This document shows positions 25,823 to 54,100 of a stretch of 64,000 nt of DNA, piece by piece. The notes under the pieces were generated by a model. It had not been told where the DNA came from. It did not search any database and was given only the letters and a program-made list of their open reading frames with translations. This stretch comes from Eubacteriales bacterium (GTDB lineage: Bacteria; Bacillota; Clostridia; Oscillospirales; CAG-382): contig JAZNZY010000019.1 of assembly GCA_045595165.1 (NCBI GenBank), positions 11,884 to 75,883 on the forward strand, in the 5' to 3' direction. The position numbers were made by a program, and so were the translations under genes. Position 1 is the stretch's first letter. Every line of letters begins with the position of its first letter.

Positions 25823-25893
25823 CAAGCAGAACTGCGATGTTCGGATAACGAAATAGAAAATAAAAAATATAAAATTTTTCAGGAGGCGAAAAA

Positions 25894-36858: not shown

Positions 36859-37884
36859 ATGGCAGAGAAAAAGAAGCCTAAAGAGCAAAAGTTAACGGGA
36901 GCGGAGAAAAAGCAGCGCGGTCTGTTCAAAAAGAAACGCGCCGGTATCGTCCTGACCAAGGACGAGGTAAAGCAGATCAAAGCAGGCAGGAAGAAGCTCC
37001 GCCGCGATATGCGCAAGGCGGGAATAAAGAGCAAGAAGGAGTTCGAGCTCACCGCTTCCTCAATGGGTCTGTATTTTGATAAGCGAAAGCCACTTGTACT
37101 TTTCTGGTGGTGGTTACGCGGCAAAGGGATATGGTTCTTGCTTGCTGCAGGAGCACTTGCACTGGCTGCGCTTTACGGAATATCCTATATCACCGAGCTG
37201 AGAGGACATTTTACCATAAGCATGTCGGGCGATATGTTCCGTGAGGGATTCACTATATCGGAAACGGTAGGGTTTGAGAATCCCACTTCCCATTTGTTTG
37301 CTACCCCTGCGGAAGGAGTACCGTGTATATCTATTTATGATATACCCGAAAATGTCGATGATATCGACGGCGCTCATAATGCGAATTATTTCGCATATAC
37401 GTTTTACCTTCGTAACGAGGGTGAAACCGCCCAGGATATAGATTGGGTTCTCCGCCTTAATTCGGAAAGCTTGTCTGTATCAGATGCGGCTTGGGCGATG
37501 ATCTTTCTTGACGGCAAGATGCAATTTTACGCCAAGGCGGACGAGGACGGAAATGTCCAGTGCCTTCCCGCGGCGGACGATAATACCAGAGGATATACAA
37601 AAGCCCCTCTTTATGACAAAGCTCTTTATCCCGACGAACAGTACGAGATTATAAAGAGTATGGGTGAAATGACCTTCTGGCGCGTCAAGCCAAAACCGTT
37701 TATCTCCGAGCTTTCTATAGATTCCGGCAGAATAACGGATATCCAGCCTTTTGAGGTCCACAAATTCACCGTGGTCATCTGGCTTGAGGGGGACGACCCC
37801 CAGTGCACCAATGATCTTATAGGCGGTCATTTGGGATTGGAATTTTATATGGAAATGGTGGAAGAGAATGACACCGCCGAATAA
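36859..37884 (+). CDS. Signal-anchored TasA-like-family protein with long K/R-rich cytoplasmic N-tail (341 aa)
   Basis: About 85 basic residues, then a TM span (IWFLLAAGALALAALYGISYI), then an extracytoplasmic domain ending 'FTVVIWLEGDDPQCTNDLIGGHLGLEFYM'. This motif is shared with the 40534 and 46516 proteins. Confidence 0.6.
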   Translation: MAEKKKPKEQKLTGAEKKQRGLFKKKRAGIVLTKDEVKQIKAGRKKLRRDMRKAGIKSKKEFELTASSMGLYFDKRKPLVLFWWWLRGKGIWFLLAAGALALAALYGISYITELRGHFTISMSGDMFREGFTISETVGFENPTSHLFATPAEGVPCISIYDIPENVDDIDGAHNANYFAYTFYLRNEGETAQDIDWVLRLNSESLSVSDAAWAMIFLDGKMQFYAKADEDGNVQCLPAADDNTRGYTKAPLYDKALYPDEQYEIIKSMGEMTFWRVKPKPFISELSIDSGRITDIQPFEVHKFTVVIWLEGDDPQCTNDLIGGHLGLEFYMEMVEENDTAE

Positions 37885-38030
37885 CCCCGGTTTTTTCGGT
37901 CAGTACCGCGACCTGGCCGTTTAAATATCATATATATTCGCAAAGGCGTGAATATCGATAAAGGGTATTTGCGCTCCGACCAAAAAAACAAAAAAACAAA
38001 AAATAAAAACAAAAGAAAGAAGGCAAAAAA

Positions 38031-40340
38031 ATGCAAACACAAGAAACAAAGCAGACCTATGGTATAAAAGGTAAGCTTATTTCTGCAGTGGCTATGCTTT
38101 TGGTAGCTATCATCATGGTAGTATCCTCTACCTATGCATGGTTCACACTTTCTACGGCACCCGAAGTAACGGGTATCTCTACCGCAGTCGGCGCAAACGG
38201 CGCTCTCGAAATGCTCCTGCTCACTCAGGATGCTACCGGTAACTGGGTTTACAACGATGGTCTCGTTGGCGAAAAGACTGTAACCGAGAAAAACACTTAT
38301 TGGGGTAACTTGGTTGACGTTTCCACCGGTTACGGTTTGGATAACATAGTTCTTTATCCCTCCCAGTTATCTCTTGATAACACAGGCGCTATCAAGCCCG
38401 GTGTTGTTGAATTCCCCGTATACGGCGCAGACGGACGTGTTTCCGTTCTTTCTCCCAATGCTGTAACCGGTATTTATGAAGGCACTGCTTTCTATCCCGG
38501 CAACGGCTACGGTGTACGTGCGGTCGGTTCTTCCTCCGGTATGACAGAACGCCAGCTCGCATACCGTAACGCACTCTCTGCTGCAGGCACCAATATGGCT
38601 CAGGCAAAGAGAGATGCTGCCACTGCTCTTTCTACAAACGGTAATGCAATCGCGGATATTGCTGTAAGAAAAGGTACTGCTGAAAGCGGCGATGGCTCTT
38701 ATAACCAGCAGGACGTTAAGAATCTTCTTGCTTTGACTACCGCGCTCAACAGCGTTGTTGCACAAATGGAAGAATCCTACAAGCAGTATATTATTGCTTA
38801 TGCCGCAAGTGCTGCGCTTGTTACTCCTGACGGAGCAGATGAGGCAACAAAGCTTGCTTATGAAAACTTCTACGCAACCGTTGAAACTTGGTTTGCAACT
38901 GAAGGAAATACCATATACAACTTCGCAACCAATTTCACTCCTGCTGATGGTATCACCATTTCTCTGCCTACTCAGGTAGCTACCGGTATTGCTAAGCTCG
39001 CAACCACTAAAACCGATGTTAACACTGCTCACACTAAATTGACCGCAATTCATGACAGAACCGATACGGACGGTAAGAAATACAGCGAATATACTACAGA
39101 TGAAGAACTCAAAAAGCTTAGTGAAGCATCTGTTGCTTGGGCGGATAGCACTGCAGGCGCCGGTGACGGACTCGGTTCTGCTCTTACTTCCCTTGTTACC
39201 ATAAACGCAATTACAGTATCCGGCTGGAAAGTAAGCGATATCTTGGCTAACAAAGATGCGTTTGCAGCTGATGCTATGGCACAGTTTGGTTCCGGCGGTA
39301 TCGCTCTTGAAATCAAGACCGGCGGCGGCGTATTGGCAGATATTGCAGACCAGTGCGGAAATTATGAAGCTAAGATCGTTATCAGCGAGATCACCTACGG
39401 TGTAACCCTCAAAGATGTTCCTGCACACATGAAAGCTGTAACTGATAACGCTATTACTAATTGTACAGACACCTATCTCGGCGATATTAAGACTGCTGTT
39501 AATGCTGTTGGCGCTCCCGAAAATGACGGCGCAGAAAAAATGCCTATTTCCGAATACTACGGATATATCGTTGACCTTGCGTTCCGTACCAATGCTGCAG
39601 AATCCAACCTCCTTCTCCAGACCGCACCCAAGGACCGTATCTACAGCGATAACGCTGAAAACGAGCTTACCTGGGGCAAGGGTAGCACTATGACCTTCAA
39701 GGCTACCGCTGCAGATTTCACCGATCAGGATGTAAAGGATCTTATGGAGCATATTAACATAGTATTCTTTACTCCCGGTAAAACTGCAAACGATAACAAT
39801 ACCGTTCTTGCATACGCAAAGCTTGACGTTGCAAACGCTACGGTCAGCGCTGCAGACGGTGTTACCGCAGATATCTATCTGTGCGAAATGGTAGATGCAT
39901 ACAAGTGCACTCTTGCAGATAATACAACCGTTACTTTGTACAAGGTTGTAACTCCCGCAGTAGCAGACGATCCCAGTACTGATGAAAACGAAACTGCCGC
40001 AGAAGTTGTTACTTACTACGAAGATTACGAACATACGAAGGTATATACGGTTCCTGGAGATGCTACTGTTGATACAACTGCAACCAAGGTAGTACATTGG
40101 CTTAAGGAAGATGACGCTGTCATCAAGAAGCTTACTCAGAACACCGCAGAAAACGTTTCCGTTCTCGTATACCTTGACGGTTCCACCATCACCAATGCAG
40201 ACGTTGCAGCTACCGTTGCAACCTCTATGACCGGTTCTATGAACCTTCAGTTTGCAAGCTCTGCTACTCTCGATCCTATGGATTACGAAGAGTTTAAGAA
40301 TCCCGCAAACAATAACCAGGGCGGCACTCAGAATCCTTAA
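38031..40340 (+). CDS. Putative major fibre subunit: 769-aa protein with SipW-cognate (TasA/camelysin-type) N-terminus
   Basis: N-terminus 'KLISAVAMLLVAIIMVVSSTYAWFTLSTAPEVTGISTAVGANGALEMLLL'. C-terminal 'VSVLVYLDGSTITNADVAATVATSMTGSMNLQFASS'. Almost no TTA/CTA/TCA codons (a 576-aa in-register mirror ORF exists). Own A-rich leader and a downstream terminator. Confidence 0.7.
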   Translation: MQTQETKQTYGIKGKLISAVAMLLVAIIMVVSSTYAWFTLSTAPEVTGISTAVGANGALEMLLLTQDATGNWVYNDGLVGEKTVTEKNTYWGNLVDVSTGYGLDNIVLYPSQLSLDNTGAIKPGVVEFPVYGADGRVSVLSPNAVTGIYEGTAFYPGNGYGVRAVGSSSGMTERQLAYRNALSAAGTNMAQAKRDAATALSTNGNAIADIAVRKGTAESGDGSYNQQDVKNLLALTTALNSVVAQMEESYKQYIIAYAASAALVTPDGADEATKLAYENFYATVETWFATEGNTIYNFATNFTPADGITISLPTQVATGIAKLATTKTDVNTAHTKLTAIHDRTDTDGKKYSEYTTDEELKKLSEASVAWADSTAGAGDGLGSALTSLVTINAITVSGWKVSDILANKDAFAADAMAQFGSGGIALEIKTGGGVLADIADQCGNYEAKIVISEITYGVTLKDVPAHMKAVTDNAITNCTDTYLGDIKTAVNAVGAPENDGAEKMPISEYYGYIVDLAFRTNAAESNLLLQTAPKDRIYSDNAENELTWGKGSTMTFKATAADFTDQDVKDLMEHINIVFFTPGKTANDNNTVLAYAKLDVANATVSAADGVTADIYLCEMVDAYKCTLADNTTVTLYKVVTPAVADDPSTDENETAAEVVTYYEDYEHTKVYTVPGDATVDTTATKVVHWLKEDDAVIKKLTQNTAENVSVLVYLDGSTITNADVAATVATSMTGSMNLQFASSATLDPMDYEEFKNPANNNQGGTQNP

Positions 40341-40379
40341 TCGTCCCCTTAATTACTTAATACTTTAAGTACTTACTTT

Positions 40380-40426
40380 CTTCCTCCGCGGGCAACCGCG
40401 GGGGAAGAAAACCCATTTTATTTTTT
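40380..40426 (+). terminator. Intrinsic terminator/attenuator after the 769-aa gene
   Basis: 12-bp stem CTTCCTCCGCGG / CCGCGGGGGAAG (one G-U pair), loop GCAA, then AAAACCCATTTTATTTTTT. Confidence 0.65.
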
Positions 40427-40533
40427 ATATTTACTGCTTTTTTCTCTCTTCTTTTTCGCGGTTTTTAAAAAGAACGGAGAAAAGCGCGGTAACCTATTAA
40501 CCGTATCCACACATTTTTGGCAGGTGAGCAGTT

Positions 40534-41556
40534 TTGGATACCAATACCTTTAACCAAAAAGAAAACGGAAAAAGCACCCTGGGCAAGCGTGTTATAATAT
40601 ATTTTTATATGATCCTCATTCTGCTCATATTGGTTACCACCGCTACCTACACTTGGTTTGCTTTAAGCAAAACACCCCGTGTAAGCAATATGGCAATGTA
40701 TATTACCGCACCCGTCGGCTTGGAGCTTGCGCTCACGCCTGACAGCGCCGAATGGGGAAGTCAGCTTTCCTTTTTGGATATGATTCCGGAAACCACTCCT
40801 CTCCGCCCCGTAACATGGTCAAATGCAGATGGCATCTTTTACGCCGCTTCATACGGTATAGACGGCAGGCTTACACACCGTTGGCAGCCCCTTTCCGACG
40901 ATGTCAACGCAAACCGCAATAATTACGAAGGATATTATTGTGTGGGCACCTTTTACGCCCGCACGGGTGAAAACGTAACCGTATCCTTAAGCCCCGCGGT
41001 GGAGGTATCCGAAGGGGTGGCGGGCTCGGGCACATATCTTATCGGCACTCCCATCTGGGATGCAGGCGAGATCGCTCACCAAAACGCAGGTCTGGGCGCA
41101 GAAAACGCAATGCGTATCGGAATAAAGATAACCTATCTGGATACCGCCTTGCTTCCCATTGAAGACAGCTCCGTGTTTTATATATACGAGCCCAACTGCG
41201 ATACCCACGCAGACGGATCCGTAGGCTACGTTCCCACTCCCAGTATAGATGGAACGAACACCCTCATTCCCGAGGACAAGCTCATAACCCAGACACATTC
41301 CACATGGACCGAGGCAGATCCGGTGCAAAACGGTGTTCAGGTGTATGAATTCGGTGAATTCACTTCTCCCGTAGAGCTGTTTTATCTCAAAGCCGAGCAA
41401 AAGGTTATGATACAGTTTTACATTTGGCTGGAAGGTCAGGATATAGACTGCACAAACCGTATCGAAGAAGCTCAAATATTGGCGAATATTCAGTTTTCCG
41501 CTGCTTTTGAAGGCGGCTCCGGTTTGCAGCCCATATATCCCGAAGAAAGCGAGTAA
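40534..41556 (+). CDS. TasA-like-family minor subunit (340 aa) with SipW-cognate-type N-terminus
   Basis: TTG start after AGGTGA. 'ILILLILVTTATYTWFALSKTPRVSNMAMYITAPVGLELAL'. C-terminal 'IQFYIWLEGQDIDCTNRIEEAQILANIQFSAAFEG'. Confidence 0.6.
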   Translation: MDTNTFNQKENGKSTLGKRVIIYFYMILILLILVTTATYTWFALSKTPRVSNMAMYITAPVGLELALTPDSAEWGSQLSFLDMIPETTPLRPVTWSNADGIFYAASYGIDGRLTHRWQPLSDDVNANRNNYEGYYCVGTFYARTGENVTVSLSPAVEVSEGVAGSGTYLIGTPIWDAGEIAHQNAGLGAENAMRIGIKITYLDTALLPIEDSSVFYIYEPNCDTHADGSVGYVPTPSIDGTNTLIPEDKLITQTHSTWTEADPVQNGVQVYEFGEFTSPVELFYLKAEQKVMIQFYIWLEGQDIDCTNRIEEAQILANIQFSAAFEGGSGLQPIYPEESE

Positions 41557-41577
41557 ACTTTAAAAGGAGTATCTGGT

Positions 41578-42066
41578 ATGGATACAAATATTACTCCCGT
41601 TCAACCTAAAAAGAAGAAAAAGAAAAAATTAATTATCGCCCTTTCCGTAACTGCCGTCTTGCTTGCAATAGTTTTGTGCTTGACTGCGGTCGTCGCCTTT
41701 GAGGTTGTCCGTTTTACCCTCACTCTTGATTACGTTTTGACTTCCGGCGACGGTGTTCCCACGCTGTTCGGTTACACGGTGTTTCGAGCGCAGACGGATT
41801 CTATGTATCCCGAATTTTCCTCAGGTGCATATCTGGTCGGAGATCCGGATTTCGACCCGGCAGATCTCCGTCCGGGGGATATTATAACCTATTGGACGGC
41901 TATTGGCGGCGAACGTGTGCTGAATACTCACCGTATCGTAAACGTATATGATGGCGGCGATTATCTCATTTTTGAAACAAGGGGAGATAATAATACGGCT
42001 TCGGATCCCCTTACGGTACACGAAAGAGAGATCGTGTCCGTATATAAATTCAGCTTTGGCGGATGA
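41578..42066 (+). CDS. sipW: SipW-type (archaeal/ER-type S26B) signal peptidase I, short form without C-terminal TM (162 aa)
   Basis: N-terminal TM span, catalytic Ser block 'QTDSMYPEF', 'NTHRIV' His block, 'RGDNN'. AAGGAG RBS. Confidence 0.8.
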   Translation: MDTNITPVQPKKKKKKKLIIALSVTAVLLAIVLCLTAVVAFEVVRFTLTLDYVLTSGDGVPTLFGYTVFRAQTDSMYPEFSSGAYLVGDPDFDPADLRPGDIITYWTAIGGERVLNTHRIVNVYDGGDYLIFETRGDNNTASDPLTVHEREIVSVYKFSFGG

Positions 42067-42157
42067 ACCCTTTTAAAGTACAAATATTAAGCATACTGCT
42101 TTGAATATATCGCGCACTCTAAAATTTATTTCCGTATTAAACGGATGGAGGATGTCC

Positions 42158-42994
42158 ATGAATAAAAACGAAAAAGTTCAAAAAACAGCAAATGAGAACG
42201 TTGAAAAAGTAGAGAAAAAGCAGCGTAAGCCCCGCAAGGTGCTTAACACCATAATAAATGTTGTGCTTATTATCGCCATAATTGTTGCCGGTGTTGCTAC
42301 TTACGTTTCCTTCGTATCCTCATCCGGTCAAGGCGCACCCAATATATTCGGTTTGCGCTTGCTGTCCATACAGACAAACTCAATGGCAGATACCCTTATG
42401 CCCGGCGACCTTGTCGTTTCCACCGGCGTTAAGGACCCTGCAGATCTCCGTCCCGGGGATATCATTACATATTGGACAGTTATTAACGGCGAACGTGTGC
42501 TTAATACCCACCGTATTATAAATATTTACGATGGCGGCGATTATCTCATATTCGAAACTCAGGGTGATAACAACACTACAGTCGACCCTCTCACCGTTCA
42601 CGAAAGCGAAATTATAGGTAAATACAGCTTCCATATTTCCGGTGTAGGTAAGGTATTTGACTATCTGCAGACTCCTACCGGATTCCTTATAGTAGTTGTT
42701 GTTCCCGTATTCATATTCTTTATTTACCACCTCGTTCAGTTCTTCCGCGTACTGTTTGAATATCAGAATGTGAAGAACCGTATTAAGTACGAGCAGGAAC
42801 GCGGCCGTACCGAAGATCTTATCGCCGCACAGCAGGAAGAACAGGCAAAGAAGGAAGCGGAACGCGCTCAGATGGAAGCAGAGCTCAGAGAAAAACTGCG
42901 CGCAGAGCTGCTTGAGAGTATGGCAAAGGAACAGCAAGCCGCACAGGAACAGAAAGCGCCTGAAAGCGAACAAGAAACAGAACAGGGTGAATAG
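42158..42994 (+). CDS. sipW: SipW-type signal peptidase I with C-terminal TM and charged coiled tail (278 aa)
   Basis: 'QTNSMADTL', 'NTHRII', 'QGDNN'. Long identical runs with the upstream paralog ('DPADLRPGDIITYWT', 'GERVLNTHRI', 'YDGGDYLIFET'). A second TM span (FLIVVVVPVFIFFIYHLV) and a Q/E/A/K-rich tail. Start set at ATG 42158 after GGAGG. Confidence 0.8.
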   Translation: MNKNEKVQKTANENVEKVEKKQRKPRKVLNTIINVVLIIAIIVAGVATYVSFVSSSGQGAPNIFGLRLLSIQTNSMADTLMPGDLVVSTGVKDPADLRPGDIITYWTVINGERVLNTHRIINIYDGGDYLIFETQGDNNTTVDPLTVHESEIIGKYSFHISGVGKVFDYLQTPTGFLIVVVVPVFIFFIYHLVQFFRVLFEYQNVKNRIKYEQERGRTEDLIAAQQEEQAKKEAERAQMEAELREKLRAELLESMAKEQQAAQEQKAPESEQETEQGE

Positions 42995-43022
42995 TCCTTA
43001 TTCACCTTAGAAGAAAGTTGAT

Positions 43023-44603
43023 ATGGATAATTTTTTAAGATATTTTTTCCAGGATATAAATAATATTCTCGATGGTTTCGCAGAGTTTTTCAAATCTTTG
43101 TGGTATTGTCTGAATTTGTTGTTTAATTTCCCAAAAAGATTTGATCTTATAAAACAATACGATGAATCCTTCACCACTACGGACTGGATATTGGTGTTAG
43201 TTGTTAATGCGATCTTGCTCGTGTTCGCTGTCGCAATTATTATCGGCGTTATTATGCTGTTAAAAAAGATATTCCGTTTCCGTGTCCCCGCAAAAAAGTA
43301 CGATGAACTCAAAAAGCAGGTTCAGCATCTTCAAAGAGATCTCGTCCGCGCCAATTACGAAAAGGACAGACTTCTGGCAATGCGTGTGGAACAGCTCGGC
43401 GGAAAAAATCCTTTGGATCTTACCCCGCCCGAAGGGGAAGAGGAAGAAAAAGAGGAGCAGGAGGAATACGTTGCTTCCGCAAACCGCAACAGATTCGATT
43501 CTCCTTGTGTAGATCCTGCCGAAAGCCGTTTCTTCAGACTCACCGGTGTTGATAATTACTATAAAACCGAATATGTCGCTCCCGAGTACGATAACGAGAT
43601 CACCTTGGCAGAGCTTTGTGAAAGATTCCGTAAGTACGCGGCGTCCCGCCTTAAGCTGTATTACGATCTCGATATGATGCGGTATTTTATCGCGTCTATG
43701 GGTACCACCAGAATTATCATTCTTCAGGGTATTTCCGGTACAGGTAAAACCAGTTTGCCTTATGCGTTCGGTAAATTCGTTCAAAAGGATACTACTGTTG
43801 TGTCCGTTCAGCCTTCCTGGCGTGAACGTACCGAGCTTTACGGTTATTTCAACGAATTTACAAAGAAGTATTCCGAAACCGAATTCCTTCGCGCTATTTA
43901 CGAGAGTAATTATTTCAGAGATCCTCATATCGTTATTCTCGACGAAATGAACATCGCCCGTGTTGAGTATTACTTTGCGGAAATGCTTTCAATTTTGGAA
44001 ATGCCTCTGCAGGAGGAATGGAAGGTTGACGTTGTTACCGCGGTGTGGGATAACGACCCCTGCCTTATAAACGGCGGTACGGTGCAGATAACCAATAACG
44101 TTTGGTTTGTCGGTACTATTAATAACGACGACTCTACCTTCGCCGTTGCGGATAAAGTGTACGACCGTGCTATTCCTATCGACCTTGACAGCCGCGCAGA
44201 TCCCTTTGAGTGCGAAGATACCGAGCCGGTGTATATTTCCACCGATCATCTTAACGCTATGTTTGCGCAGGCAAAAGAGGATTACCCCATATCCGAAGAG
44301 ATAATCCAAAAGCTGGAAGTTGTAAACGATTATGTTATCAAAAACTTCCGTCTTGCTTTCGGTAACCGTATTATGAAGCAGATCCGCGAATTCGTGCCCT
44401 GCTTTATCGCTTGCGGCGGAACCGAGATACAGGCAGTTGACTTTATCGTTGCAAAGAAGGTTTTGCGTAAGTTTGAATCTCTCAGTATCGGCTTTATGAA
44501 AGACGAGCTTACAAAATTCAGCAACTTTTTGGATAGAACCTTTGGCAAAAACGTAATGGTACATTGCAAAACGTACATAGAATTGCTTAAGAAAAATAAT
44601 TAA
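43023..44603 (+). CDS. Membrane-anchored McrB-like AAA+ (AAA_5-type) NTPase (526 aa)
   Basis: One TM span (ILVLVVNAILLVFAVAIIIGVIMLL), a coiled segment and an acidic stretch. Then Walker A 'GISGTGKTS', Walker B 'IVILDEMN', 'ARVEYYFAEMLSILE' and 'VGTINNDDSTFAVADKVYDRA' (McrB-type N-x-x-D block). Confidence 0.75.
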   Translation: MDNFLRYFFQDINNILDGFAEFFKSLWYCLNLLFNFPKRFDLIKQYDESFTTTDWILVLVVNAILLVFAVAIIIGVIMLLKKIFRFRVPAKKYDELKKQVQHLQRDLVRANYEKDRLLAMRVEQLGGKNPLDLTPPEGEEEEKEEQEEYVASANRNRFDSPCVDPAESRFFRLTGVDNYYKTEYVAPEYDNEITLAELCERFRKYAASRLKLYYDLDMMRYFIASMGTTRIIILQGISGTGKTSLPYAFGKFVQKDTTVVSVQPSWRERTELYGYFNEFTKKYSETEFLRAIYESNYFRDPHIVILDEMNIARVEYYFAEMLSILEMPLQEEWKVDVVTAVWDNDPCLINGGTVQITNNVWFVGTINNDDSTFAVADKVYDRAIPIDLDSRADPFECEDTEPVYISTDHLNAMFAQAKEDYPISEEIIQKLEVVNDYVIKNFRLAFGNRIMKQIREFVPCFIACGGTEIQAVDFIVAKKVLRKFESLSIGFMKDELTKFSNFLDRTFGKNVMVHCKTYIELLKKNN

Positions 44604-44635
44604 TGTGTTTATAAATTCAGGAAGGAGGGCGTGTA

Positions 44636-46519
44636 ATGGCAACAAAAAAGAAGGTTTTCGATGCTGAAAATCAATCTGCGATAAGCGTTATAGACCCGCT
44701 TTATAAAAAATATGTAAAAAGTGTTGTACGCGCTCTCGGAACCACTGAATTTTACGAATATTTTATGGAGTCTGTTGCCCAAGCCGAAAACGAAATTCAG
44801 TTTTCCAACAGACGAATGGAAAAGCTTGTTGATACAAGCTGGATCGATGCAATAGAAAGCGCATTGACCGGATTCCAGAATATTATCGCATCTCCCCGTA
44901 ACGTTATCCGCGAAGACGAGCTTATCGTTAACGTGGCGAACGCCAAAAAAACGGGAAGCGACGTTGTGCGCCATCTGGCTGTCCACACCTCTTTGGTTGA
45001 AGATTTCAACGAGGAAAGCGGCGACGTGCGCCCCAGCAAGCTTATGCAAAAATACCGCGAGGACTCTATCGGACAGGTGTATGAAAACCGCGTGGTTTTC
45101 ACAACGCTTGAAATGGCGTTTCAGTTTGTAAAGATACGCCACGATGCGCTTTTCGAAGCGATGAGCGATGAGTTCGGTGCGAAGCTTAAGGTAAAAACCG
45201 ATATGACAAGCTCAAACGAGGTTGTTCATATGGATACGTTCATTCACATACGTGACGTAGACAGTGCGCTGGATACGGATGATAAAAACCGTGATGTTTT
45301 CGAGCGTATTTCAAGGCTTTACCGTATTTTGTCCACCAATATGAATTCTCATTTTGCAAGACATATGGCTAAGTATCCCAGGGTAAAGGGTACGGTAACC
45401 AAAACGAACGTTTTAAAGAAAAACAAGAACTACCACGCAATAATGGAATTGATGGAGTTTCTCAAGGGCTACGGCGATATCGGATACACCATAAAGATCA
45501 TAGAGCAAAATCCGGTAGTCGATGAGAATTTCCAAAAAGATATTTTCCATAACGTTCTGTTCAATTATCTTGTATTGAAGGGACATTTGGAGCGTGATAA
45601 GGACAGACGTCTGCCTGCTCCGGTTAAAGAGAAAAAACGTTCTCTTAAGCCTAAGTTTATAAAAGAGATCATTGAAGAGCTTACGGAAGATTACGATCTT
45701 CCCGATATTGAGATACGCAAGGTCCTCATAGAGGAGCTGACAAAAGAACAGCTTATGCGTGAGGAAGCGGCAGAGCGCCGCCGTCTTGTTGAAGAGCAGG
45801 AAAAACGCAAAAAAGAAGAAGAACAGCGTATCAAGCGGGAAAAAGAAGAAGAAAAAGAACGCCTGCGCCGAGAAAAAGAAGAAGAAAAAGAGCGTTTGCG
45901 TTTGGAAAAAGAAGCGGAGCGTCAAAAACAGCTTATCGAGCGTATGGAGCGCGAGCAGGAAGACAGACGCAGAAGCAAGCTGTTCAGAAAAGAGCTTGAG
46001 CATTTCGCAAAGTATTTTGAGGAAAGATTGCAGGAACGTTCGGAAAAGCAGCAGCTGGAAACCGTGGCTCGTCAGGATTTCGAAGACGCCGCATATATTC
46101 TGGAGGAAACCGAACGGCTCAAGCAGGAAGAGCTTGAAAGAGCAAGGATCCGCCGCCGCGAAGAGCGTGAGCGTCAGCAGCAGGAGGAATTCGAAGCGCG
46201 TCAGAAGGCGTTGGAAGAGGAAGCCGAGCGTCAGGCAAAGCTTCGTCGGGAACAACGCGAAGCAGAAGAGCGGCTGAAGCTGCAGCTTGAGGAGCAGGAA
46301 GAAGCCGCCCGTATAGAAAAGCATATGCAGGATCTGCTGGCTGTTGAATCCTATGCTCGTGTGATTTCCGATTTCCAAAAGAATCTCTCTGCACGTATGA
46401 AGCTCAGAACCGATCTTGCGGAAAGACAGTTGTCCGAACAGCGTGCCCGCGAAGACGAACGCCGCAGGATTATTGATGCCCGTTCAAAGAATCGCAACAG
46501 GAGAATGAGCAAAAGATGA
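44636..46519 (+). CDS. 627-aa protein: globular N-terminal domain (tentatively McrC/DUF2357-like, no nuclease motif seen) plus ~280-aa E/K/R-rich coiled coil
   Basis: Follows the AAA+ gene after a 33-nt gap. The C-terminal half is 'EEQEKRKKEEEQRIKREKEEEKERLRREKEEEKERLRLEKEAERQ...', with imperfect DNA repeats at about 45836-45915. Its stop overlaps the next ATG (ATGA). Confidence 0.5.
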   Translation: MATKKKVFDAENQSAISVIDPLYKKYVKSVVRALGTTEFYEYFMESVAQAENEIQFSNRRMEKLVDTSWIDAIESALTGFQNIIASPRNVIREDELIVNVANAKKTGSDVVRHLAVHTSLVEDFNEESGDVRPSKLMQKYREDSIGQVYENRVVFTTLEMAFQFVKIRHDALFEAMSDEFGAKLKVKTDMTSSNEVVHMDTFIHIRDVDSALDTDDKNRDVFERISRLYRILSTNMNSHFARHMAKYPRVKGTVTKTNVLKKNKNYHAIMELMEFLKGYGDIGYTIKIIEQNPVVDENFQKDIFHNVLFNYLVLKGHLERDKDRRLPAPVKEKKRSLKPKFIKEIIEELTEDYDLPDIEIRKVLIEELTKEQLMREEAAERRRLVEEQEKRKKEEEQRIKREKEEEKERLRREKEEEKERLRLEKEAERQKQLIERMEREQEDRRRSKLFRKELEHFAKYFEERLQERSEKQQLETVARQDFEDAAYILEETERLKQEELERARIRRREERERQQQEEFEARQKALEEEAERQAKLRREQREAEERLKLQLEEQEEAARIEKHMQDLLAVESYARVISDFQKNLSARMKLRTDLAERQLSEQRAREDERRRIIDARSKNRNRRMSKR

Positions 46520-47844
46520 ATAAAACACTCCTAAAGCTGATAGCCGTCGTTATGGCGTTGATAATTTCGGTAGTTATGGTCGTTACCATCAGTTATGCGT
46601 GGACGACTATTTCCACCGCGCCTATCGCTGAAGGAATACAGATCACTATCGGAGGCGGCAACACTATTATGATGGCGCCCGATATTTCCAAAACTGTAGA
46701 CGGTACAACGTTTCATTATCCCGGATTTTTTGATGATACGTTGAACTTTTCTCAGTATGAGCAGTATGATTATTTAAAGCAAGTAAGCGCACTTTCGCCC
46801 GTTTCCACGGCTGACGGAATAAATTGGTTTATTCCGGAATATTACGATATTCTTGATGAGGCTGTTATTAACGGAACCGCTTGCGTTGGCGAAGGTAAGC
46901 CGATTACCGAATTCACTTTGGATGATCTGCTGGAATATGCAAATCTCACCGAGAAAAAGGATAAAGACGGACATTATATTTATCTTGATTTCTGGGTTGT
47001 TTCTCCCGGCTCGGATTGTACGCTCCGCGTATCCGAGGGAGATGAAAACGGAGGAAGCTATTTACTTGAGCTTATGGCTCCCACGTTGAATGCTGACGGC
47101 AGCTTTGCGCTTGACTCCACCTCCGGAACCACTGCCGCTTCTGCGCGGGTAGGATTTCTTGTTGATCCGGATTACGTTACTGATAATACCATGCTGTATT
47201 ATCAGCAGAGTTATACCTACAAGGAACAGTATCAAAGATTAAGGGGCTCTTACGGTGAGCGCGGCAGCAAGTGGTATTCAAGCGAATATAATTTTACTAT
47301 TTATGAGCCCAACGGAGATCTTCATCCCAACGGCGGGAATGATACCTATGTCATCACTTCTCCTTTGGGATATTCAGACGGGCAAATAGTTCTTGCCGAT
47401 ATCCGCGATTCCCTTGCGGTACAGCTTAAAAACAGTTGGAAAACCGCATCGAGCGCGGGAATAGGTATTGAAGAAGTGTTCCAAACCGCTATTGCGGGCA
47501 AGAATATTAATTCCGAAGCCGAGGCGAAGGACGCCCTCTATAATAAATATCTCCAAGGTAATTTTATACCTTATGTAACAAAAGGAAGCTTTGTTACCAA
47601 CACAGAAGATTTATACAGCTATTATGCCAGCGGAAATATAGTTGATACAGATGAAATGAGTTCTTTGGGGCTCAGCGGCGCTGCCGAGAGCACTTATATC
47701 GTTAAGCTGGAAAAAAACGTACCCCAAAGAATCAGAATGTTCGTTTGGATCGAAGGACAGGATGTGGATTGTACCGGGGCTGAGGCGGTTGATTTTGCAA
47801 TCAGCATAGAACTTGCCGGAAGCACTCAGGATATATATGAATAA
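46516..47844 (+). CDS. TasA-like-family subunit (442 aa) with SipW-cognate-type N-terminus
   Basis: 'LIAVVMALIISVVMVVTISYAWTTISTAPIAEGIQITIGGG'. C-terminal 'IRMFVWIEGQDVDCTGAEAVDFAISIELAG'. Confidence 0.6.
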   Translation: MNKTLLKLIAVVMALIISVVMVVTISYAWTTISTAPIAEGIQITIGGGNTIMMAPDISKTVDGTTFHYPGFFDDTLNFSQYEQYDYLKQVSALSPVSTADGINWFIPEYYDILDEAVINGTACVGEGKPITEFTLDDLLEYANLTEKKDKDGHYIYLDFWVVSPGSDCTLRVSEGDENGGSYLLELMAPTLNADGSFALDSTSGTTAASARVGFLVDPDYVTDNTMLYYQQSYTYKEQYQRLRGSYGERGSKWYSSEYNFTIYEPNGDLHPNGGNDTYVITSPLGYSDGQIVLADIRDSLAVQLKNSWKTASSAGIGIEEVFQTAIAGKNINSEAEAKDALYNKYLQGNFIPYVTKGSFVTNTEDLYSYYASGNIVDTDEMSSLGLSGAAESTYIVKLEKNVPQRIRMFVWIEGQDVDCTGAEAVDFAISIELAGSTQDIYE

Positions 47845-48559
47845 AGACAAAAATATTCGAAACAAGATAATATCAGCGATCGTATCAGTACTTTTGGTGG
47901 CATCTGTTTTTGTCTGCCTTTTTGTGGTTATTCAGGTGTTGAGTAACGGATACGTTTCTATCGGCGGCTACAGCTTTTTTAAGGTCGTAACCGGAAGTAT
48001 GGAGCCCGAAATACCCGTAGGGGCGCTTATTCTTTCCAAAGAAACGGAAATGAATGATATTGAGGTCGGTGAGGTTGTCTGTTTTCGGTCAAAATCACCG
48101 GATATGTTTGGCAAGATAATTACTCACAGAGTAATTGAAATTGTCAACGCAGAGGACAATACATTACAGTTTATTACCAAGGGAGATGCCAATCTTTCGC
48201 TTGACGGATACTATGTTTCACAGCAGAATTTGATCGGCAAAGTAGTATGGCAATCGGGAAGCGGCAAGCTTTCGGGTATTTTAAACTTCCTGTCCAATAA
48301 GTTTGGTTTTCTTTCCTGCATAGCTTTCCCCGCACTGCTTATATTGACACTTATACTTCGTGATAACGTTAAAACAATGCAACGGGATATTAAGAGAATA
48401 TCCGAGCAGTTGGAAACACGGGAAACAGCATCGGGCTCGAATACGCCTGAGAACGGTACGAAAACCGAAAATTATGAACAAATGCGCGCTAGGATACGCG
48501 CCGAGCTTATTGAGGAGCTGAATCAAATTGACAAATCAGAACAACCGAAACAGCAATAG
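47837..48559 (+). CDS. sipW: SipW-type signal peptidase I, third copy (240 aa) with C-terminal TM
   Basis: 'VVTGSMEPEIPVGALILSK', 'ITHRVI', 'KGDANLSLD'. C-terminal TM span (FGFLSCIAFPALLILTLIL). Start set at ATG 47837, overlapping the upstream stop by 8 nt. Confidence 0.8.
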   Translation: MNKDKNIRNKIISAIVSVLLVASVFVCLFVVIQVLSNGYVSIGGYSFFKVVTGSMEPEIPVGALILSKETEMNDIEVGEVVCFRSKSPDMFGKIITHRVIEIVNAEDNTLQFITKGDANLSLDGYYVSQQNLIGKVVWQSGSGKLSGILNFLSNKFGFLSCIAFPALLILTLILRDNVKTMQRDIKRISEQLETRETASGSNTPENGTKTENYEQMRARIRAELIEELNQIDKSEQPKQQ

Positions 48560-50465
48560 CTCGTTACCGGGTTCGTTCAACCTTTTAAAGGTTTTACAAA
48601 AGAGAATATTGTGGCGCGCTGCGCTGGTTGTGCTTACCGTTGTTCTTACTGTCGTGTTGGTGTTTGCCCTTACGGTAGCGTGGCACACCAACGTGGTTCA
48701 AACGGGAGGACTTACGTTTTCTGCCGAAACCTGGAATTTTAAAGGCGAGATCACTTTGGACGAAAGTTCCTTCAATATCGCCCCCGGGGACAGCGGCGTT
48801 GTTTCTATGTCCTTTAAAAACGAGAGTGCTTCTCTCGTAGCCGCAAGCGTTACCGTTTCAAAAGATCAGCTTGCGCAAGCGGCTTTGAAATCCAAGCTGT
48901 TTTTTTACATAGATACTTCTGTGACAAGAAACGGCGAAAACGTAGAGAAGGTTTATATAAACAAATCAAACAGCTATACTTACGTAGCTTTTCCCTACAG
49001 CGAGCTTGACCTTAACGAAGGCACCAACAATGCGCCTATCCTTAAATGGGAATGGGTGTACGATCAGCTTGGCTATTATGTGCTTGGCACCGCTACCAAC
49101 AACGGCGGCGTAACAGTGGAAGAGTATATTCGTCCTATCGAATATGAATATGACGAAATGAAAACCACATTCGATGCAAACGGAAATCTCTTGACTGTTG
49201 ACGGCACCACTACTGCGAATGATTTTATTGAGTTGTTTTCCGCAACGGACGGATATGCAGGCGTTATCGACGTAACGAAAAAGACGGCAGGCGGGTATTA
49301 TCCTGTAGCTGTAAATGAAGGCGGATACGGCGTGTGGGCATATCTTTGTACCTACAGCGAGATACAGACAAGTGCTGCCGAGGATACCGATTGGGGTACA
49401 AACAACGTTTCGTTGGGCAACGTACGTGTTACCGTTACAGGCGTTAACAGCAAGGAAAAAGGCACGTTTGTAAGCACGGAGGCGGACTTTATTTCTGCTT
49501 TAAACAGCGGAGGAATAAGCGTTGTTACTCTGGCAAATGATATTACACTTACTCAGCCTATAGTTTTAACGGATTCTTCCGTTACTATGATAGATTTAGG
49601 CGGCTATAAGCTGACTTCAAGCGCACTTACTATAATAGATGCCAATCCCGGTTCGTCGGTAATGGTGTACAACGGCGATATCGAGGGCGCAGGTCAGGCG
49701 GCGTCTGCCGTAACAGCTGACGGTGCCAACGTGATATTGAATTCCGTGGATATTACCAACGTGGGCGAAGGAATTGAGGTTTTTGACTATCTCAATGATT
49801 TGGGAAGCGATTCCAACGTGCATCTTACCGATTGCACCATAACCGCTTTTGAAGACGGATTGTGGATCAAAGCAAACGGTGCAGATTCTGAGAAAAATGC
49901 TCAGATTACTATAGAAAATTGTACTATCGTCGGTGAAAAATATTCGGGTATCCTTTGCAACGGAACTTATTACGGAGTTGATATCAACATAACCTCGGGT
50001 TCGAAAATCACGGGATACTATGCGGGGATTTATTTCCCGGCAAAGGACAGTACCCTTAACATTCAGGACAGTACAGCCGAAGGGAAAAACGGTATTGTTG
50101 TTAAGGGCGGATTTGTAAACGTAGTAAATTCCACCGTCAAGGGCACCGGAACAACCCCCGAGGCACTTCCCGATGATCCGAGCAAGCTGCCGTTAAGCGG
50201 ATGGACAGAAACCTGCGACGGCATATATCTTGAAGCTAACTATACGGGCTGGGAAACAAAAGTTACCGTTTCCGGTGATAATACCGTTGTTACCAGCGTT
50301 TCCGGCTTGGCGGTCAGACAGTATCCCATAGGTGAGGGGTATCAGGCGACCCTTACCGTAAGCGGCGGTACTTACAGCAGCGATGTTACCGAGTATCTTG
50401 ATCCCGATGGCGGTTATACATGCAACAAGATCAATGAGTCGGAATACAAGGTTTCGGTTCAATAA
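48528..50465 (+). CDS. 645-aa protein: signal-anchor with TasA-like N-terminal region plus right-handed beta-helix C-terminal domain
   Basis: The only plausible start is TTG 48528 (GAGGAG 10 nt upstream), inside the 3' end of the sipW-3 gene. 'VVLVFALTVAWHTNVVQTGGLTFSAETWNF', and 'PGDSGVVSMSFKNES' resembles camelysin. C-terminal turns such as 'VILNSVDITNVGEGIEV', 'VHLTDCTITAFEDGLWI' and 'ITIENCTIVGEKYSGIL' look like PbH1-type repeats. Confidence 0.55.
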   Translation: MTNQNNRNSNSSLPGSFNLLKVLQKRILWRAALVVLTVVLTVVLVFALTVAWHTNVVQTGGLTFSAETWNFKGEITLDESSFNIAPGDSGVVSMSFKNESASLVAASVTVSKDQLAQAALKSKLFFYIDTSVTRNGENVEKVYINKSNSYTYVAFPYSELDLNEGTNNAPILKWEWVYDQLGYYVLGTATNNGGVTVEEYIRPIEYEYDEMKTTFDANGNLLTVDGTTTANDFIELFSATDGYAGVIDVTKKTAGGYYPVAVNEGGYGVWAYLCTYSEIQTSAAEDTDWGTNNVSLGNVRVTVTGVNSKEKGTFVSTEADFISALNSGGISVVTLANDITLTQPIVLTDSSVTMIDLGGYKLTSSALTIIDANPGSSVMVYNGDIEGAGQAASAVTADGANVILNSVDITNVGEGIEVFDYLNDLGSDSNVHLTDCTITAFEDGLWIKANGADSEKNAQITIENCTIVGEKYSGILCNGTYYGVDINITSGSKITGYYAGIYFPAKDSTLNIQDSTAEGKNGIVVKGGFVNVVNSTVKGTGTTPEALPDDPSKLPLSGWTETCDGIYLEANYTGWETKVTVSGDNTVVTSVSGLAVRQYPIGEGYQATLTVSGGTYSSDVTEYLDPDGGYTCNKINESEYKVSVQ

Positions 50466-50497
50466 CCAAAGCGTTTTTACACCAAGGAGAGGGAGTT

Positions 50498-51148
50498 ATG
50501 AAGCGAAAATTTAATATTCATACCCTTCTCGCGCTTTTTTGCACAGTTGCTGTTGCGGGATGTGCTCTGTGTTCCATAAATATCGCATACGGAAGATACA
50601 GCACCACAATAACCAACGATATAGGGTTTAAAGCTTCGCTCCCGCCGGAGGTTTATCTGGTTCAGACCGATTCGGAAAGCAGCAGAGTGGAGTTTACTCC
50701 CCAGTGGCAGACGGTGGGCGGCGAAAAATGCCTCTCGTTTTCGCTCAGTAATTATGATATAGACGATGAAGTTGCTCCCAAGCAGGATATAACCGTGCGT
50801 ATTCGGGTTTTCGTGCCCGAAACATCCGCTGAAGCAGGGGATGATAATGTTGCTGTTGCGAACGTTATGAGAACTCTCGCTTTTACTCTTCACATCGGCG
50901 AGGAAGCGGCTTCATACAGCTCGAGTATGGACTATTTAAGCGAACAAACTCCTATGTATATGGAGAATGTCAGCAATACAGATGTAGAAAACGGCGGTTG
51001 GATATATAGTTTTCATACCGCTGCAATGCAGGAAGTATCCGTAGTTTTGCCGGGTGGCGAATTAACGGATATACCAATTACAATAACGGTTGCGGATACG
51101 GACACAGACACTTCTGATTTTGTGATTTGTGTTGATAGAATCAAGTAA
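50498..51148 (+). CDS. Small secreted protein/lipoprotein of the locus (216 aa)
   Basis: The signal 'LLALFCTVAVAGCALCSINIAYGRYSTTITND' could be a lipobox (VAGC) or a SipW-type signal (IAYGRYS). GGAGAGGGAG RBS. Confidence 0.45.
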   Translation: MKRKFNIHTLLALFCTVAVAGCALCSINIAYGRYSTTITNDIGFKASLPPEVYLVQTDSESSRVEFTPQWQTVGGEKCLSFSLSNYDIDDEVAPKQDITVRIRVFVPETSAEAGDDNVAVANVMRTLAFTLHIGEEAASYSSSMDYLSEQTPMYMENVSNTDVENGGWIYSFHTAAMQEVSVVLPGGELTDIPITITVADTDTDTSDFVICVDRIK

Positions 51149-51191
51149 TATTCGTTAGTTATTGCCTTCATTGTTATAAGGAGACAGGCTT

Positions 51192-54100
51192 ATGAAAGAA
51201 ACACAAAAAAGGATAATGGAATACAACTTTAAGCTCCCGAAGCTTAAAGAAAAGGTAATAGCGGTTGCCTTGCTACTCGCCGTATCTGCATCTATGCTTG
51301 TTACGGTTTCTTTTGCATGGCTTTCTATCTCTATCAACCCCGCAGTACAAGGTGTTAATACCACTGTTGCGGCGAACGGTAACCTGGAGATCGCTCTTGC
51401 AACGGGCTCCGCGGCTACTATAACTGCGCCCGGCGAGTCCAAGGTAGGGGATAGCAATCTGCCTATTCTTGAGCGTAACCTTACCTGGGGTAACCTTGTC
51501 AACCTGGCGGATGCATCTTACGGTCTTTCCCAGATGACCCTTCGCCCCGCAAAGCTTAATGAGTTTGAACTTGCAACCAACCCTTTGTATGGACCCGTTT
51601 ACGATGAAGACGGACGAGTTGTTAAACTTAATACAAACTTTGGTTATTCTATGTGGGACACTAAAACCATGGTGTTTGAACATACTGATAAACTGGGTGT
51701 TCGCTCTATAACCTCAATGATATACGGCACGACCGGTACAGCTACTATGTACAGGAACAGGCTTGACGAGGTGAACAGTAAAAACGGTATTTTGCAGAGT
51801 AAATATACCGCTCTGGCAAACAATTCCAACCATATGAACGCTCTTACCGACGTAATGGTTGGTTATATGCTTCATGCTTTCAGAACCGGCGGTTCTTCTG
51901 TTGCCGGTTTGGTAAGCGAAGCTAATTTTACAAGGACTCAACTTCAGAACTTTAAAGTTTTATATGAAGATTTTGCAGAAGTATTGGCAGAGCAAGCTCA
52001 GGTTTATGCGGATTTTCTTAATTTACAGGCGGAAATACAGGCGTACATACAGGAAAAAAATGGCCAAGAGCCGATTTCTATTACTATTACTGCAGAGGAA
52101 ATCCTTTCTTTATCCTATGGCAGCAATGCCGCAGCTAATGCAGTGAAGAATAAGGGCTTTACCGCAATTTCCGGCGGATTTATCAATGAATTGGATTCTT
52201 ATTTGACCGATTACAATATAGTTGTGTCCGATATAGATAATATTCAGGGAATAATCGATGCAATGACCAGAACGTCTGTTAGCTGGCCTGATGCAAAATA
52301 TACCAACAGTGCAGGCGTTTCCGTTTCCTTGGAGGATATAGTTAACCGATTTGCTGTTTTGGGAACCTGCAAGGTTTATATTCCCAACGATAATGTGACA
52401 AAAGACGTTTCAGCATTTACCGGCGCCAGCACCGTAATGCTGTTGACGGACGAAGATTATATTGATATAACCATTACAAACGGTCTTTTGAAGAATTTTG
52501 AAAACCGTAACGGTGCGAGATTAAAAGCAGAAGGAATCCCTTTGCAAATGTCCGCCGCAGGACAGACTGTTGACGTAGAAGCGACCGTACAAACCAACGC
52601 GAACAAAAACCTTTTTGGCGCAGAAGCAAGTAATCTCGCTGCAACGATAACGTCAGAGATCGGCGCACCTACCCTTGTCCCCAGCGATACTTACGGTCTT
52701 GCTATAGACTTTTGGGTGAGAACAAACGCTTCCGGCGGATATCTTACCCTGCAGGGTAACGTGCTTACCGTGAAAAATGAAGTTGAAGTTACCGGTATAG
52801 ATAAAAACGGCGATACCGTAAATATTTATACTCTTTCCCGCGAATCGACACAGGAAGTAGAGGGCGAAAACGGCGAAACTTCTACAGAAACTTATACTCA
52901 GACATATGACCTTTATTGGTTGGAGGAAGAGGTTACTGCAGAAGACGGTTCTACCACTAAAGAAACCGTTTGGTATAACGCTGTCACCCATTCCAGATTT
53001 GAGCTTCAGGATGGCGAAAACCCCAGACAAAAGATAGAAACTGTTGAAACTGTCATCGGCTATGAGGGAGACAACCGCGTTTGGGAGGGCGACGAGCACG
53101 CTATCCTCTCCGTAAACAGCACTACTCAGGGCAGCGGCAGCTGTTACGTATACTATGCAGATACTCCCGAAGATCAGGCACGAAGCCTTGAGCTTCTCAA
53201 GTATATGAAGGTCGCTTTCATTGATGTAGAGGGCAATCTTCTTGCGAAGGCGTATATGGATACGGAGCGTCACTATGCGGCAAACGGTAAGGTTACCGTG
53301 CCTATGGTGCTTGAAAACGACAGTATCAATATCGGCACAAACGACGAAGGCGAAGCAGTGTTTGCCATCACTCCGCTGGAGAAGAACACACCTATGCTGG
53401 TCACCGCCCTCGTTTATCTTGACGGCGATAACCTTACAAACGATTACGTTCTCGCTTCTTCCGATATAGACGGTCAGCTTAATATCCAGTTTGGCAATAA
53501 CCAGCTTTTGAAGCCTATCGATAACGAAACCTTGTACAATGCTGAAATGAGCATTTCCGCCACAGTATCTCCCACCGAGTTTAATTATGATGACGGAACG
53601 GAAATGAAGAGCAGCGTTGCGGTTACGATTGAGGGCTATGAGCCTAATACCGTAGAGGCATTCTTCGTCCGCGCTATCAACGCCCAGACCGGTGCAAAAG
53701 AAGAAAAATTCGCACTTAACGATGCGGATGGCGACGGTGTATGGACATCTAATTACGAATTTATGTATCCCGGAACGTATTTGCTCCGCAGCGTTACTAT
53801 CGACGGTATCGAGCGCGAGCTTACCCTGGCAGAGGGAGAATCCTTCCCTACGGTAACCGTAAAGGGTTTTGATATACGAAACGTAACTTATAATATTAAC
53901 CCCACCGTGTTCAGCGTTAACAATTCATATACCGGCTCGGTAAGCCTGCAATTTGTTGCAGACGATCCCGCTAAGATGCCTCAAAAGGTAATGGGAAGAT
54001 TTATCCGTGAAGACGGCACCACCGTTAACGTAAACTTTGTTTATGATGCAACTACCCACGTCTGGACGGGTAATGCTACCTTCGTTTCCTCCGGCGTGTA

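Follow-up and report, generated by a model that had tools for sequence, protein, structure and literature searches.

McrBC is the textbook GTP-dependent restriction motor. In the solved McrBC structures, McrB forms a hexamer, and the DUF2357-type domain of McrC fills the central pore and activates hydrolysis. We analyzed a 64,000-nucleotide (nt) stretch of a Eubacteriales bacterium genome (GenBank assembly GCA_045595165.1, contig JAZNZY010000019.1, positions 11,884 to 75,883), here called the window, to which all positions refer. The window carries an adjacent gene pair, protein A and protein B, in which such a ring and its activator appear to persist without the DNA-binding or nuclease part. 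The reading that we consider probable is that the pair is a GTPase machine descended from McrBC which, having shed its DNA-binding and nuclease functions, now serves a SipW-dependent surface-fiber or pilus operon.

The closest described relatives come from a census of McrBC systems, which named the CoCoPALM class (Bell, Makarova, Wolf and Koonin, eLife 2024; PMC11090510). The members of this large clade are NxD GTPases that carry a fused FtsB-like domain with a transmembrane (TM) helix and a coiled coil. An adjacent gene encodes an McrC (DUF2357) homolog with a coiled coil, and signal-peptidase-family genes are associated with the pair. The NxD motif is usually followed by E or a second D. That study treats the class in three sentences and defers its analysis to a future paper, and our literature search found no follow-up, and no description under other names, beyond the eLife paper and its preprint. 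Judged by its sequence features, our pair belongs to CoCoPALM, all defining features being present except sequence homology to FtsB/DivIC, for which the matches stay sub-threshold. Since the class was named in 2024, the pair is not a discovery in itself. A preliminary description of this DNA, made from the letters alone, had presented the arrangement as an oddity; it is instead typical of a large and widespread class.

Protein A contains an McrB-type GTPase module. Its Walker A motif is GISGTGKTS (residues G236–S244, including K242). The segment ILDEMNIARVEYYFAEML (residues 305–322) contains the Walker B pair D307–E308, and the segment GTINNDDSTFAVADKVYDRA (residues 364–383) contains the signature N367–N368–D369–D370. 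The protein scores just over the cutoff of the Pfam AAA_5 model (23.4 bits, cutoff 22, E 6e-5). When the single sequence was compared with all PDB sequences, E. coli McrB was the only genuine match (E 0.003), and a 26-sequence profile of protein A also retrieved E. coli McrB (E 0.001). The aligned stretch takes in the signature motif, which follows the sensor-1 strand, as well as Walker A and the DExN Walker B. We judge the resemblance to McrB to be beyond chance. The two open reading frames (ORFs) and all of the McrB/AAA_5 hallmarks listed in the preliminary description are present.

The motifs GxSGTGKTSLP, LDEMN[IL]AR and NNDDST show no variation among 79 protein A homologs that are 38–75% identical, and homologs number in the thousands. 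This conservation pattern is of the core-machinery type and shows that purifying selection on the catalytic motifs is very strong.

The NNDD sequence of protein A is ambiguous, since it fits NxxD and also NxD with a second D behind it. BLASTP aligned protein A without gaps to an 800-amino-acid (aa) AAA protein from the Deinococcus plasmid p96k (38% identity, E 2e-64), pairing TINNDDST of protein A with TANHDETT. Because this alignment sets NNDD against NHDE, the motif is NxD (N367-x-D369) followed by D/E (D370), the signature by which the NxD branch of McrB GTPases is recognized (Bell et al.). Given this McrB-family signature, protein A is more likely a GTPase than a generic NTPase or ATPase. 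The earlier label of an McrB-type enzyme thus holds, while its generic 'NTPase' gives way to a likely GTPase.

A relative of the GTPase module alone also occurs in MT835511.1, an unannotated 45.9-kb record of a human fecal Bacteriophage sp. (protein A residues 194–490, E 3e-54, 33% identity). This relative probably represents an NxD GTPase of the CoCoNuT-like kind carried by a phage or prophage.

The N-terminal part of protein A matches the architecture that had been read from the letters. Residues 1–200, in which no DNA-binding domain was found, run from an amphipathic segment through a TM helix and a coiled coil to an acidic linker. A TM-like segment lies near residue 57 in all 79 homologs and is followed by a conserved YEKDxxLAMxV helix (also given as YEKDxILAMxV). 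The acidic linker is variable and runs to about residue 160, with a net charge of 0 to -24 in 78 homologs. Across the homolog set, the 20 residues after the TM segment have a median charge of +3 and those before it are about neutral. This charge distribution places the GTPase domain in the cytoplasm. We therefore predict with confidence a one-TM anchor and a short coiled coil in front of a cytoplasmic GTPase domain.

Protein B is encoded immediately downstream, after a spacer with a GGAGG ribosome-binding site. The spacer is 32 nt long, not 33 nt as first counted. The TGA of protein B overlaps the ATG of the next gene as ATGA (46516–46519), in agreement with the coupling described before. Protein B alone had no significant match in scans of Pfam and other libraries or of the PDB. 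The DUF2357 model (Pfam accession PF09823) was, at the level of individual family members, detected in 13/17 close and 39/50 distant relatives of protein B (best E 1.8e-14). The McrC/DUF2357 likeness, originally called faint, is thus significant at the family level.

Clustered at 50% identity, the family defined by the N-terminal ~330 residues of protein B falls into 1240 groups, of which 990 reach E<=1e-10. The DUF2357-type domain is almost always N-terminal and is followed by an E/K/R/Q-rich tail of ~100–800 aa. The invariant core consists of W, P, YENR, F, R, TN, K and aromatic residues, and R59/R60, K105, R152 and R168 are conserved positions in protein B. This core lacks a conserved D..(D/E)xK triad, and in 50 relatives Pfam detected no nuclease domain, of the PD-(D/E)xK type or any other, that could be assigned to the family. 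The preliminary description had likewise seen no PD-(D/E)xK motif in protein B. Because DUF2357 is present in relatives and both nuclease domain and triad are missing from them, we identify protein B as a probable nuclease-less McrC homolog. It has no TM segment and no signal peptide and is confidently predicted to be cytoplasmic.

The last ~300 residues of protein B are 43–89% charged. Residues ~377–440 and 490–560 are 7–14% hydrophobic and have many opposite-charge pairs at i/i+4 spacing. These stretches look more like ER/K single alpha-helices, while other parts of the tail are coiled-coil-like. Of the coiled coil proposed earlier for this region, the E/K/R/Q richness is confirmed and the extension of a coiled coil throughout the tail is not.

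Two fusion candidates were considered. In the metagenomic representative P0335 (969 aa), a DUF2357 domain and charged tail like those of protein B are continued by a TM segment and a Peptidase_S26 domain. Either P0335 is a Rosetta-stone fusion that links the McrC-like protein with the signal peptidase, or it results from gene-calling read-through. P0374 (1329 aa) was considered as a fusion of proteins A and B and was ruled out by BLASTP.

A profile of the protein B family, run against a set with a single genome for each species, matched at least 572 species-representative genomes, which are from gut anaerobes. Culturable carriers of the system include Blautia intestinihominis CLA-AA-H95, Jingyaoa shaoxingensis NSJ-46, Anaerosporobacter faecicola KCTC 15857, Lachnospiraceae bacterium 10-1 and Collinsella sp. 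AF33-16. From the matched genomes, 80 species-level loci were retrieved, and adjacency was counted from all-ORF matches within them. The loci come from Lachnospiraceae (Blautia, Dorea, Coprococcus and others), Oscillospiraceae, Erysipelotrichaceae and Peptococcaceae, as well as from the actinobacteria Collinsella and Senegalimassilia. The system is found in many Collinsella species (loci L063–L084) and thus crosses the Bacillota/Actinomycetota boundary. One locus (L077) is in a bin labeled Alloprevotella sp. (Bacteroidota), yet its neighboring genes resemble Collinsella ones, which may reflect a contaminated bin or horizontal transfer.

A protein A homolog lies directly upstream of protein B in 79/80 loci, at a median gap of 49 nt. 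SipW-type signal peptidase genes usually flank the pair on both sides. One is found directly before protein A in 59 of the 70 loci with room for it. On the other side, 73 loci have room; a SipW-type gene is the next gene after protein B in 66 of these, and 70 have one within 2.5 kb. Subunit-like genes are present within 8 kb in 72/80 loci. The usual order in low-GC loci is one to four TYAWF proteins of 260–300 aa, a first SipW-type peptidase (SipW1), protein A, protein B and a second peptidase (SipW2). These loci often add a PilZ/YcgR-like protein and a homolog of g341, a 341-aa membrane protein described below. Among relatives in which protein A is 72–75% identical, the whole ~20-kb operon is syntenic, from the HD_5 and FIVAR proteins on the upstream side to the beta-helix and giant proteins on the downstream side.

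These observations bear on the possibility that a degenerate McrBC- or CoCoNuT-type defense module is lodged in the operon, or that the whole operon is an anti-phage surface-remodeling system. Protein A matches the PADLOC candidate PDC-M26A (1e-41), and its closest non-PALM relatives are CoCoNuT-like GTPase and DUF2357 pairs on plasmids. However, the PADLOC match covers the GTPase region alone, and the model scores plasmid relatives of protein A just as well. It is thus a domain-level match and no sign of a defense function; our literature search found PDC-M26 named in no paper. Pfam and NCBIfam scans found no nuclease, HEPN or DNA-binding domain in the operon proteins scanned. Full-length protein A was absent from 72,556 plasmid and 50,697 phage records, in which the GTPase module alone has matches (24–40% identity). 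Together with the core-machinery conservation, the shared A–B position with flanking SipW genes across two phyla and the synteny of the whole operon, this makes a role in defense highly improbable.

The neighborhood pattern and the absence from plasmid and phage records argue for a conserved multi-component machine, not a mobile defense pair that landed by chance. Of the two readings offered in the preliminary description, an McrBC-type motor repurposed for a secretion or fiber operon is strongly supported by the conserved gene neighborhood. The other, a degenerate defense pair trapped in the operon, is largely refuted by the same pattern and records.

Table 1. Features of the protein A–protein B locus, with positions in the window.
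Feature	Position	Strand	Basis
HD_5 protein with weak EAL-like C-terminal half, operon head	35374..36840	+	HD_5 9e-12, EAL 1.6e-4; syntenic in L001–L005
341-aa membrane protein (g341)	36859..37884	+	one TM; homologs in other loci (see text)
769-aa secreted protein, SSTYAWFT, subunit C-terminal motif	38031..40340	+	sequence; weak homologs in loci
340-aa secreted subunit, putative SipW-type signal peptide TATYTWFA, subunit-family prototype	40534..41556	+	homologs in most loci
Truncated extra SipW-type peptidase, 162 aa	41578..42066	+	TIGR02228, 63.5 bits; one TM
SipW-type signal peptidase I, paralog 1	42101..42994	+	TIGR02228, 83.4 bits; two TM, ~85-aa charged C-tail
Protein A, 526 aa, predicted membrane-tethered McrB-like GTPase of the NxD branch	43023..44603	+	ORF, Pfam AAA_5, PDB McrB match, synteny
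Single TM helix, protein A residues 56–74	43188..43244	+	KD19 3.34; TM-like segment in 79/79 homologs
Juxtamembrane coiled-coil-type helix, protein A residues ~90–125	43290..43397	+	heptad a/d fill 0.75
McrB-type GTPase module, protein A residues ~209–507	43647..44543	+	motifs invariant in 79 homologs
Protein B, 627 aa	44636..46519	+	ORF
McrC N-terminal-type domain (DUF2357), nuclease-less, protein B residues 1–325	44636..45610	+	PF09823 in relatives
Highly charged helical tail, protein B residues 326–627	45611..46519	+	composition profile
442-aa secreted subunit paralog, ISYAWTT, translationally coupled to protein B	46516..47844	+	sequence, ATGA overlap
SipW-type signal peptidase I, paralog 2	47813..48559	+	TIGR02228, 96.7 bits; two TM, charged C-tail
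645-aa secreted protein, right-handed beta-helix/pectate-lyase-like domain	48528..50465	+	Beta_helix 8e-7, Pectate_lyase_5 1e-3
216-aa small secreted or lipoprotein-like protein	50498..51148	+	sequence, homologs in loci
1643-aa giant secreted protein, VSFAWLS signal peptide type	51192..56123	+	sequence, syntenic

The genes from 36859 to 56123 are all on the forward strand and are separated by short gaps or overlap (Table 1). A promoter and terminator scan of the operon gave the same result as shuffled sequence. The operon peptidases exceed the cutoff of TIGR02228 (archaeal-type signal peptidase I, SipW type; 51.85 bits) and fall under that of the Bacillus SipW equivalog model. Both full-length paralogs end in charged helical tails (42740–42994 and 48360–48559), which in 75–79 homologs have median lengths of 78 and 45 aa and are net acidic. 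Provided that the catalytic domain, which lies between the two TM helices, is on the outer side, these tails should be in the cytoplasm.

The 162-aa peptidase copy has an N-terminal TM segment and the catalytic core, with stretches nearly identical to the 42101–42994 gene, and lacks the second TM segment and the tail. The syntenic relatives L001–L005 carry one peptidase gene at this position, and the copy therefore looks like a recent partial tandem duplication.

Several operon-encoded secreted proteins (216–1643 aa) have a hydrophobic N-terminus that ends in an (S/A)TYAWF-like motif. The subunit family shares N- and C-terminal motifs in alignment. TIGR04088 is its commonest NCBIfam match, found in 5/26 members with a best E of 2e-4. 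The TasA-type label given to the operon in the preliminary description is thus supported by the SipW-type peptidases and, weakly, by the signal-peptide type, and not by the subunits. The 645-aa beta-helix protein is a probable tip or adhesin.

The gene at the operon head encodes an HD_5/EAL-like protein with a predicted role in cyclic di-GMP (c-di-GMP) turnover or sensing. PilZ/YcgR-like proteins are encoded in 13/80 loci and stand next to SipW2 in distant ones. This association points to control of the system by c-di-GMP. It would also fit a regulatory switch in place of a motor: a GTP-dependent A/B checkpoint might sense the cytoplasmic state, for example through c-di-GMP effectors, and license SipW activity or the order of subunit incorporation without mechanical work on the fiber. 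The recurring c-di-GMP components are consistent with such a checkpoint, and the cytoplasmic SipW tails would be plausible regulatory handles. To our knowledge, the SipW-dependent TasA fibers of B. subtilis assemble without a dedicated NTPase. Truncation to NxD may, in addition, be expected to modulate the hydrolysis rate (Bell et al., PMC11090510). However, an AAA+ catalytic apparatus that is near-invariant across phyla and a retained McrC-type activator fit a high-turnover machine better. We consider a pure switch unlikely, while noting that switch and motor are not mutually exclusive.

The g341 protein has a basic cytoplasmic N-terminus of ~89 aa, one TM segment and an extracytoplasmic domain. 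Its family has an N-terminal net charge of +1 to +19, mostly at least +5 (31 homologs, syntenic relatives included). The extracytoplasmic domain ends in WLEGxDxxCTN...LxF, a motif common to the secreted subunits. By its layout, g341 could be a membrane-retained base or anchor subunit.

The basic g341 N-terminus (mostly +5 to +19) and the acidic protein A linker beside the ring might also indicate an extraction or quality-control AAA+ machine. Such a ring would thread or pull cytoplasm-exposed segments, such as the g341 N-terminus or the n-regions of signal peptides, and in this way would remove signal peptides after cleavage, or free or reset the anchor that holds the fiber in the membrane. 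AAA+ rings commonly thread polypeptides. However, McrC fills the McrBC pore and protein B keeps the DUF2357 domain, which leaves little room for threading, and g341 homologs are found at E<1e-5 in only 28/80 loci. We regard this explanation as distinctly unlikely.

The favored McrBC-derived machine suggests the following arrangement. By analogy with the solved McrBC structures, protein A would form a hexameric ring under the membrane, and the DUF2357 domain of protein B would insert into this ring and stimulate GTP hydrolysis through the NxD/Walker B site. From the architecture of the two proteins, the charged helix of protein B and the coiled-coil stalk and acidic linker of protein A may join the ring to cytoplasm-facing parts. 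Candidate partners are the charged C-tails of the two SipW paralogs, the basic N-terminus of g341 and c-di-GMP effectors. More speculatively, GTP-driven conformational cycles might be passed across the membrane via the TM/coiled-coil stalks or the SipW proteins. The ring could then gate or power the ordered SipW cleavage of membrane-anchored pre-subunits. It could also gate or power subunit polymerization, or extrusion through the cell wall, under c-di-GMP control. In its fullest form, which we advance tentatively and hold to be more doubtful than the machine itself, the operon would make a new Gram-positive surface fiber from subunits that have no sequence relationship to TasA, sortase pilins or type IV pilins, that are processed by a SipW pair and whose assembly or extrusion is powered by a GTP-driven, McrBC-derived membrane ring.

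Several points weigh against a fiber-building McrBC-derived ring. The subunits, as single sequences and as a 26-member profile, match neither the Pfam Peptidase_M73 (TasA/camelysin) model nor any PDB entry, TasA included, and the secreted proteins show no detectable similarity to TasA, camelysin or any pilin. We infer fiber formation by these proteins from their paralogy, signal-peptide type and published annotation. The NTPase-free assembly of TasA fibers means that an energy requirement is not obvious. The hexamer-plus-plug geometry is a projection from McrBC homology. The McrC link of protein B runs through the Pfam DUF2357 profile, and the McrC chains in the PDB are unmatched; profiles of protein B and its N-terminal domain retrieved no McrC and no nuclease from the PDB, only noise or low-complexity helical proteins. 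Searches for FtsB/DivIC homology of the protein A N-terminus gave only sub-threshold matches (DivIC E 0.13, FtsL E 0.017, LapA_dom E 0.001), although the TM and coiled-coil architecture is present. AlphaFold2 models, built on shallow alignments (70–90% identity), were unusable, with a mean predicted local distance difference test score of 53 for protein A (about 30 in the GTPase core) and 54 for the protein B N-terminal domain.

If the ring drives or gates fiber assembly, a defense motor would have been exapted for cell-surface biogenesis. SipW-type fibers would then have an energy-dependent route, and the gut microbiota an abundant adhesion or biofilm organelle. A fiber powered by GTP would further mean that pilus biogenesis has a new pathway and that an McrBC machine has, for the first time, a task that does not involve nucleic acids. 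Such a pathway would exist in hundreds of species from the guts of humans and animals (Blautia, Dorea, Coprococcus, Oscillospiraceae and Collinsella). The class has been named and is mechanistically unexplored, and the parts list and topology given here provide experimental targets. These include K242, D307/E308 and N367/D369 of protein A, the conserved basic residues of protein B (R59/R60, K105, R152 and R168), the SipW tails and the g341 N-terminus.

Two regions outside the conserved operon may also encode surface proteins. The interval 25879–32055 contains long ORFs on both strands, one of 2053 aa on the forward strand (25894–32055) and one of 2007 aa on the reverse strand (25879–31902). 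The forward ORF, which lies upstream of the FIVAR genes and begins with a hydrophobic segment, probably encodes a giant surface protein; its antisense counterpart is likely a compositional artifact. The next gene after the giant protein of the operon (56193–57971, forward strand) encodes a surface protein with BspA-type leucine-rich repeats (Pfam LRR_5, 6e-59) and a hydrophobic segment at either end, and lies outside the block conserved in relatives.

Among known systems, canonical McrBC (E. coli McrB/McrC; PDB 6HZ4, 6UT6) shares with our pair the AAA+ core, Walker A, the DExN Walker B, an Asn-containing signature after the sensor-1 strand and a DUF2357-type partner encoded directly downstream. 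It differs in having an N-terminal DNA-binding domain where protein A has a TM helix and a coiled coil, an NxxD motif where protein A has NxD(D/E), and a PD-(D/E)xK nuclease in McrC that protein B lacks. These three differences place the pair outside the canonical McrBC definition. The pair is also membrane-tethered, located in a secretion operon and absent from mobile elements.

CoCoNuTs (coiled-coil nuclease tandems; PDC-M26) belong to the same NxD GTPase clade, to which the p96k GTPase aligned above connects protein A. They likewise combine GTPase coiled coils with a DUF2357 partner that often lacks an active nuclease, and match the PDC-M26 model. In contrast to our pair, CoCoNuTs are soluble, have long N-terminal coiled coils, reside on plasmids and in defense islands, and always occur with HEPN or other nucleases and helicases. 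Protein A has a TM anchor, and the pair neighbors SipW-type peptidases and secreted proteins. As it has no associated nuclease, the pair does not fit the CoCoNuT definition.

The B. subtilis tapA-sipW-tasA and B. cereus sipW-calY operons resemble ours in that they have a dedicated archaeal-type (SipW) signal peptidase, several subunits that are paralogs of one another, regulation of the biofilm type and, less clearly, substrates whose signal peptide ends in an aromatic motif. The operon described here differs in its subunits, which lack TasA/camelysin sequence similarity, in its two SipW paralogs with long cytoplasmic tails, in its giant and beta-helix proteins and in its McrBC-like GTPase pair, which is absent from the Bacillus systems.

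Type IV pili and type II secretion systems (PilB/GspE with a PilC platform) share a concept with the proposed machine by analogy only: a cytoplasmic hexameric NTPase coupled across the membrane to the assembly of a fiber from peptidase-processed, membrane-anchored subunits. PilB and GspE are secretion ATPases unrelated to McrB-type AAA+ proteins, and the subunits differ. The type IV pilus peptidase is a prepilin peptidase of the cytoplasmic face, whereas the SipW enzymes of our operon act on the outer face. In C. perfringens, one operon encodes sipW, the SipW substrate BsaA and the biofilm matrix protein BsaC, and efficient secretion of BsaC needs a type IV pilus-type, ATPase-driven apparatus (PMC11580942). 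This apparatus was proposed by the authors to help BsaC past the peptidoglycan layer (PMC11580942). The mention of McrB in that paper is an E. coli strain genotype only.

CoCoPALM remains the closest match. The McrB-like AAA_5-clade GTPase, the NxD(D) motif, the DUF2357 partner with a charged tail and the signal peptidases are the same, and none of the features of our pair contradicts membership. Relative to the published account (PMC11090510), our analysis adds that the peptidases are of the archaeal/SipW type and usually flank the pair on both sides, and that a paralogous family of subunits with putative SipW-type signal peptides accompanies it. Further additions are the anchor-like g341 protein, the c-di-GMP components and the ER/K character of the protein B tail.

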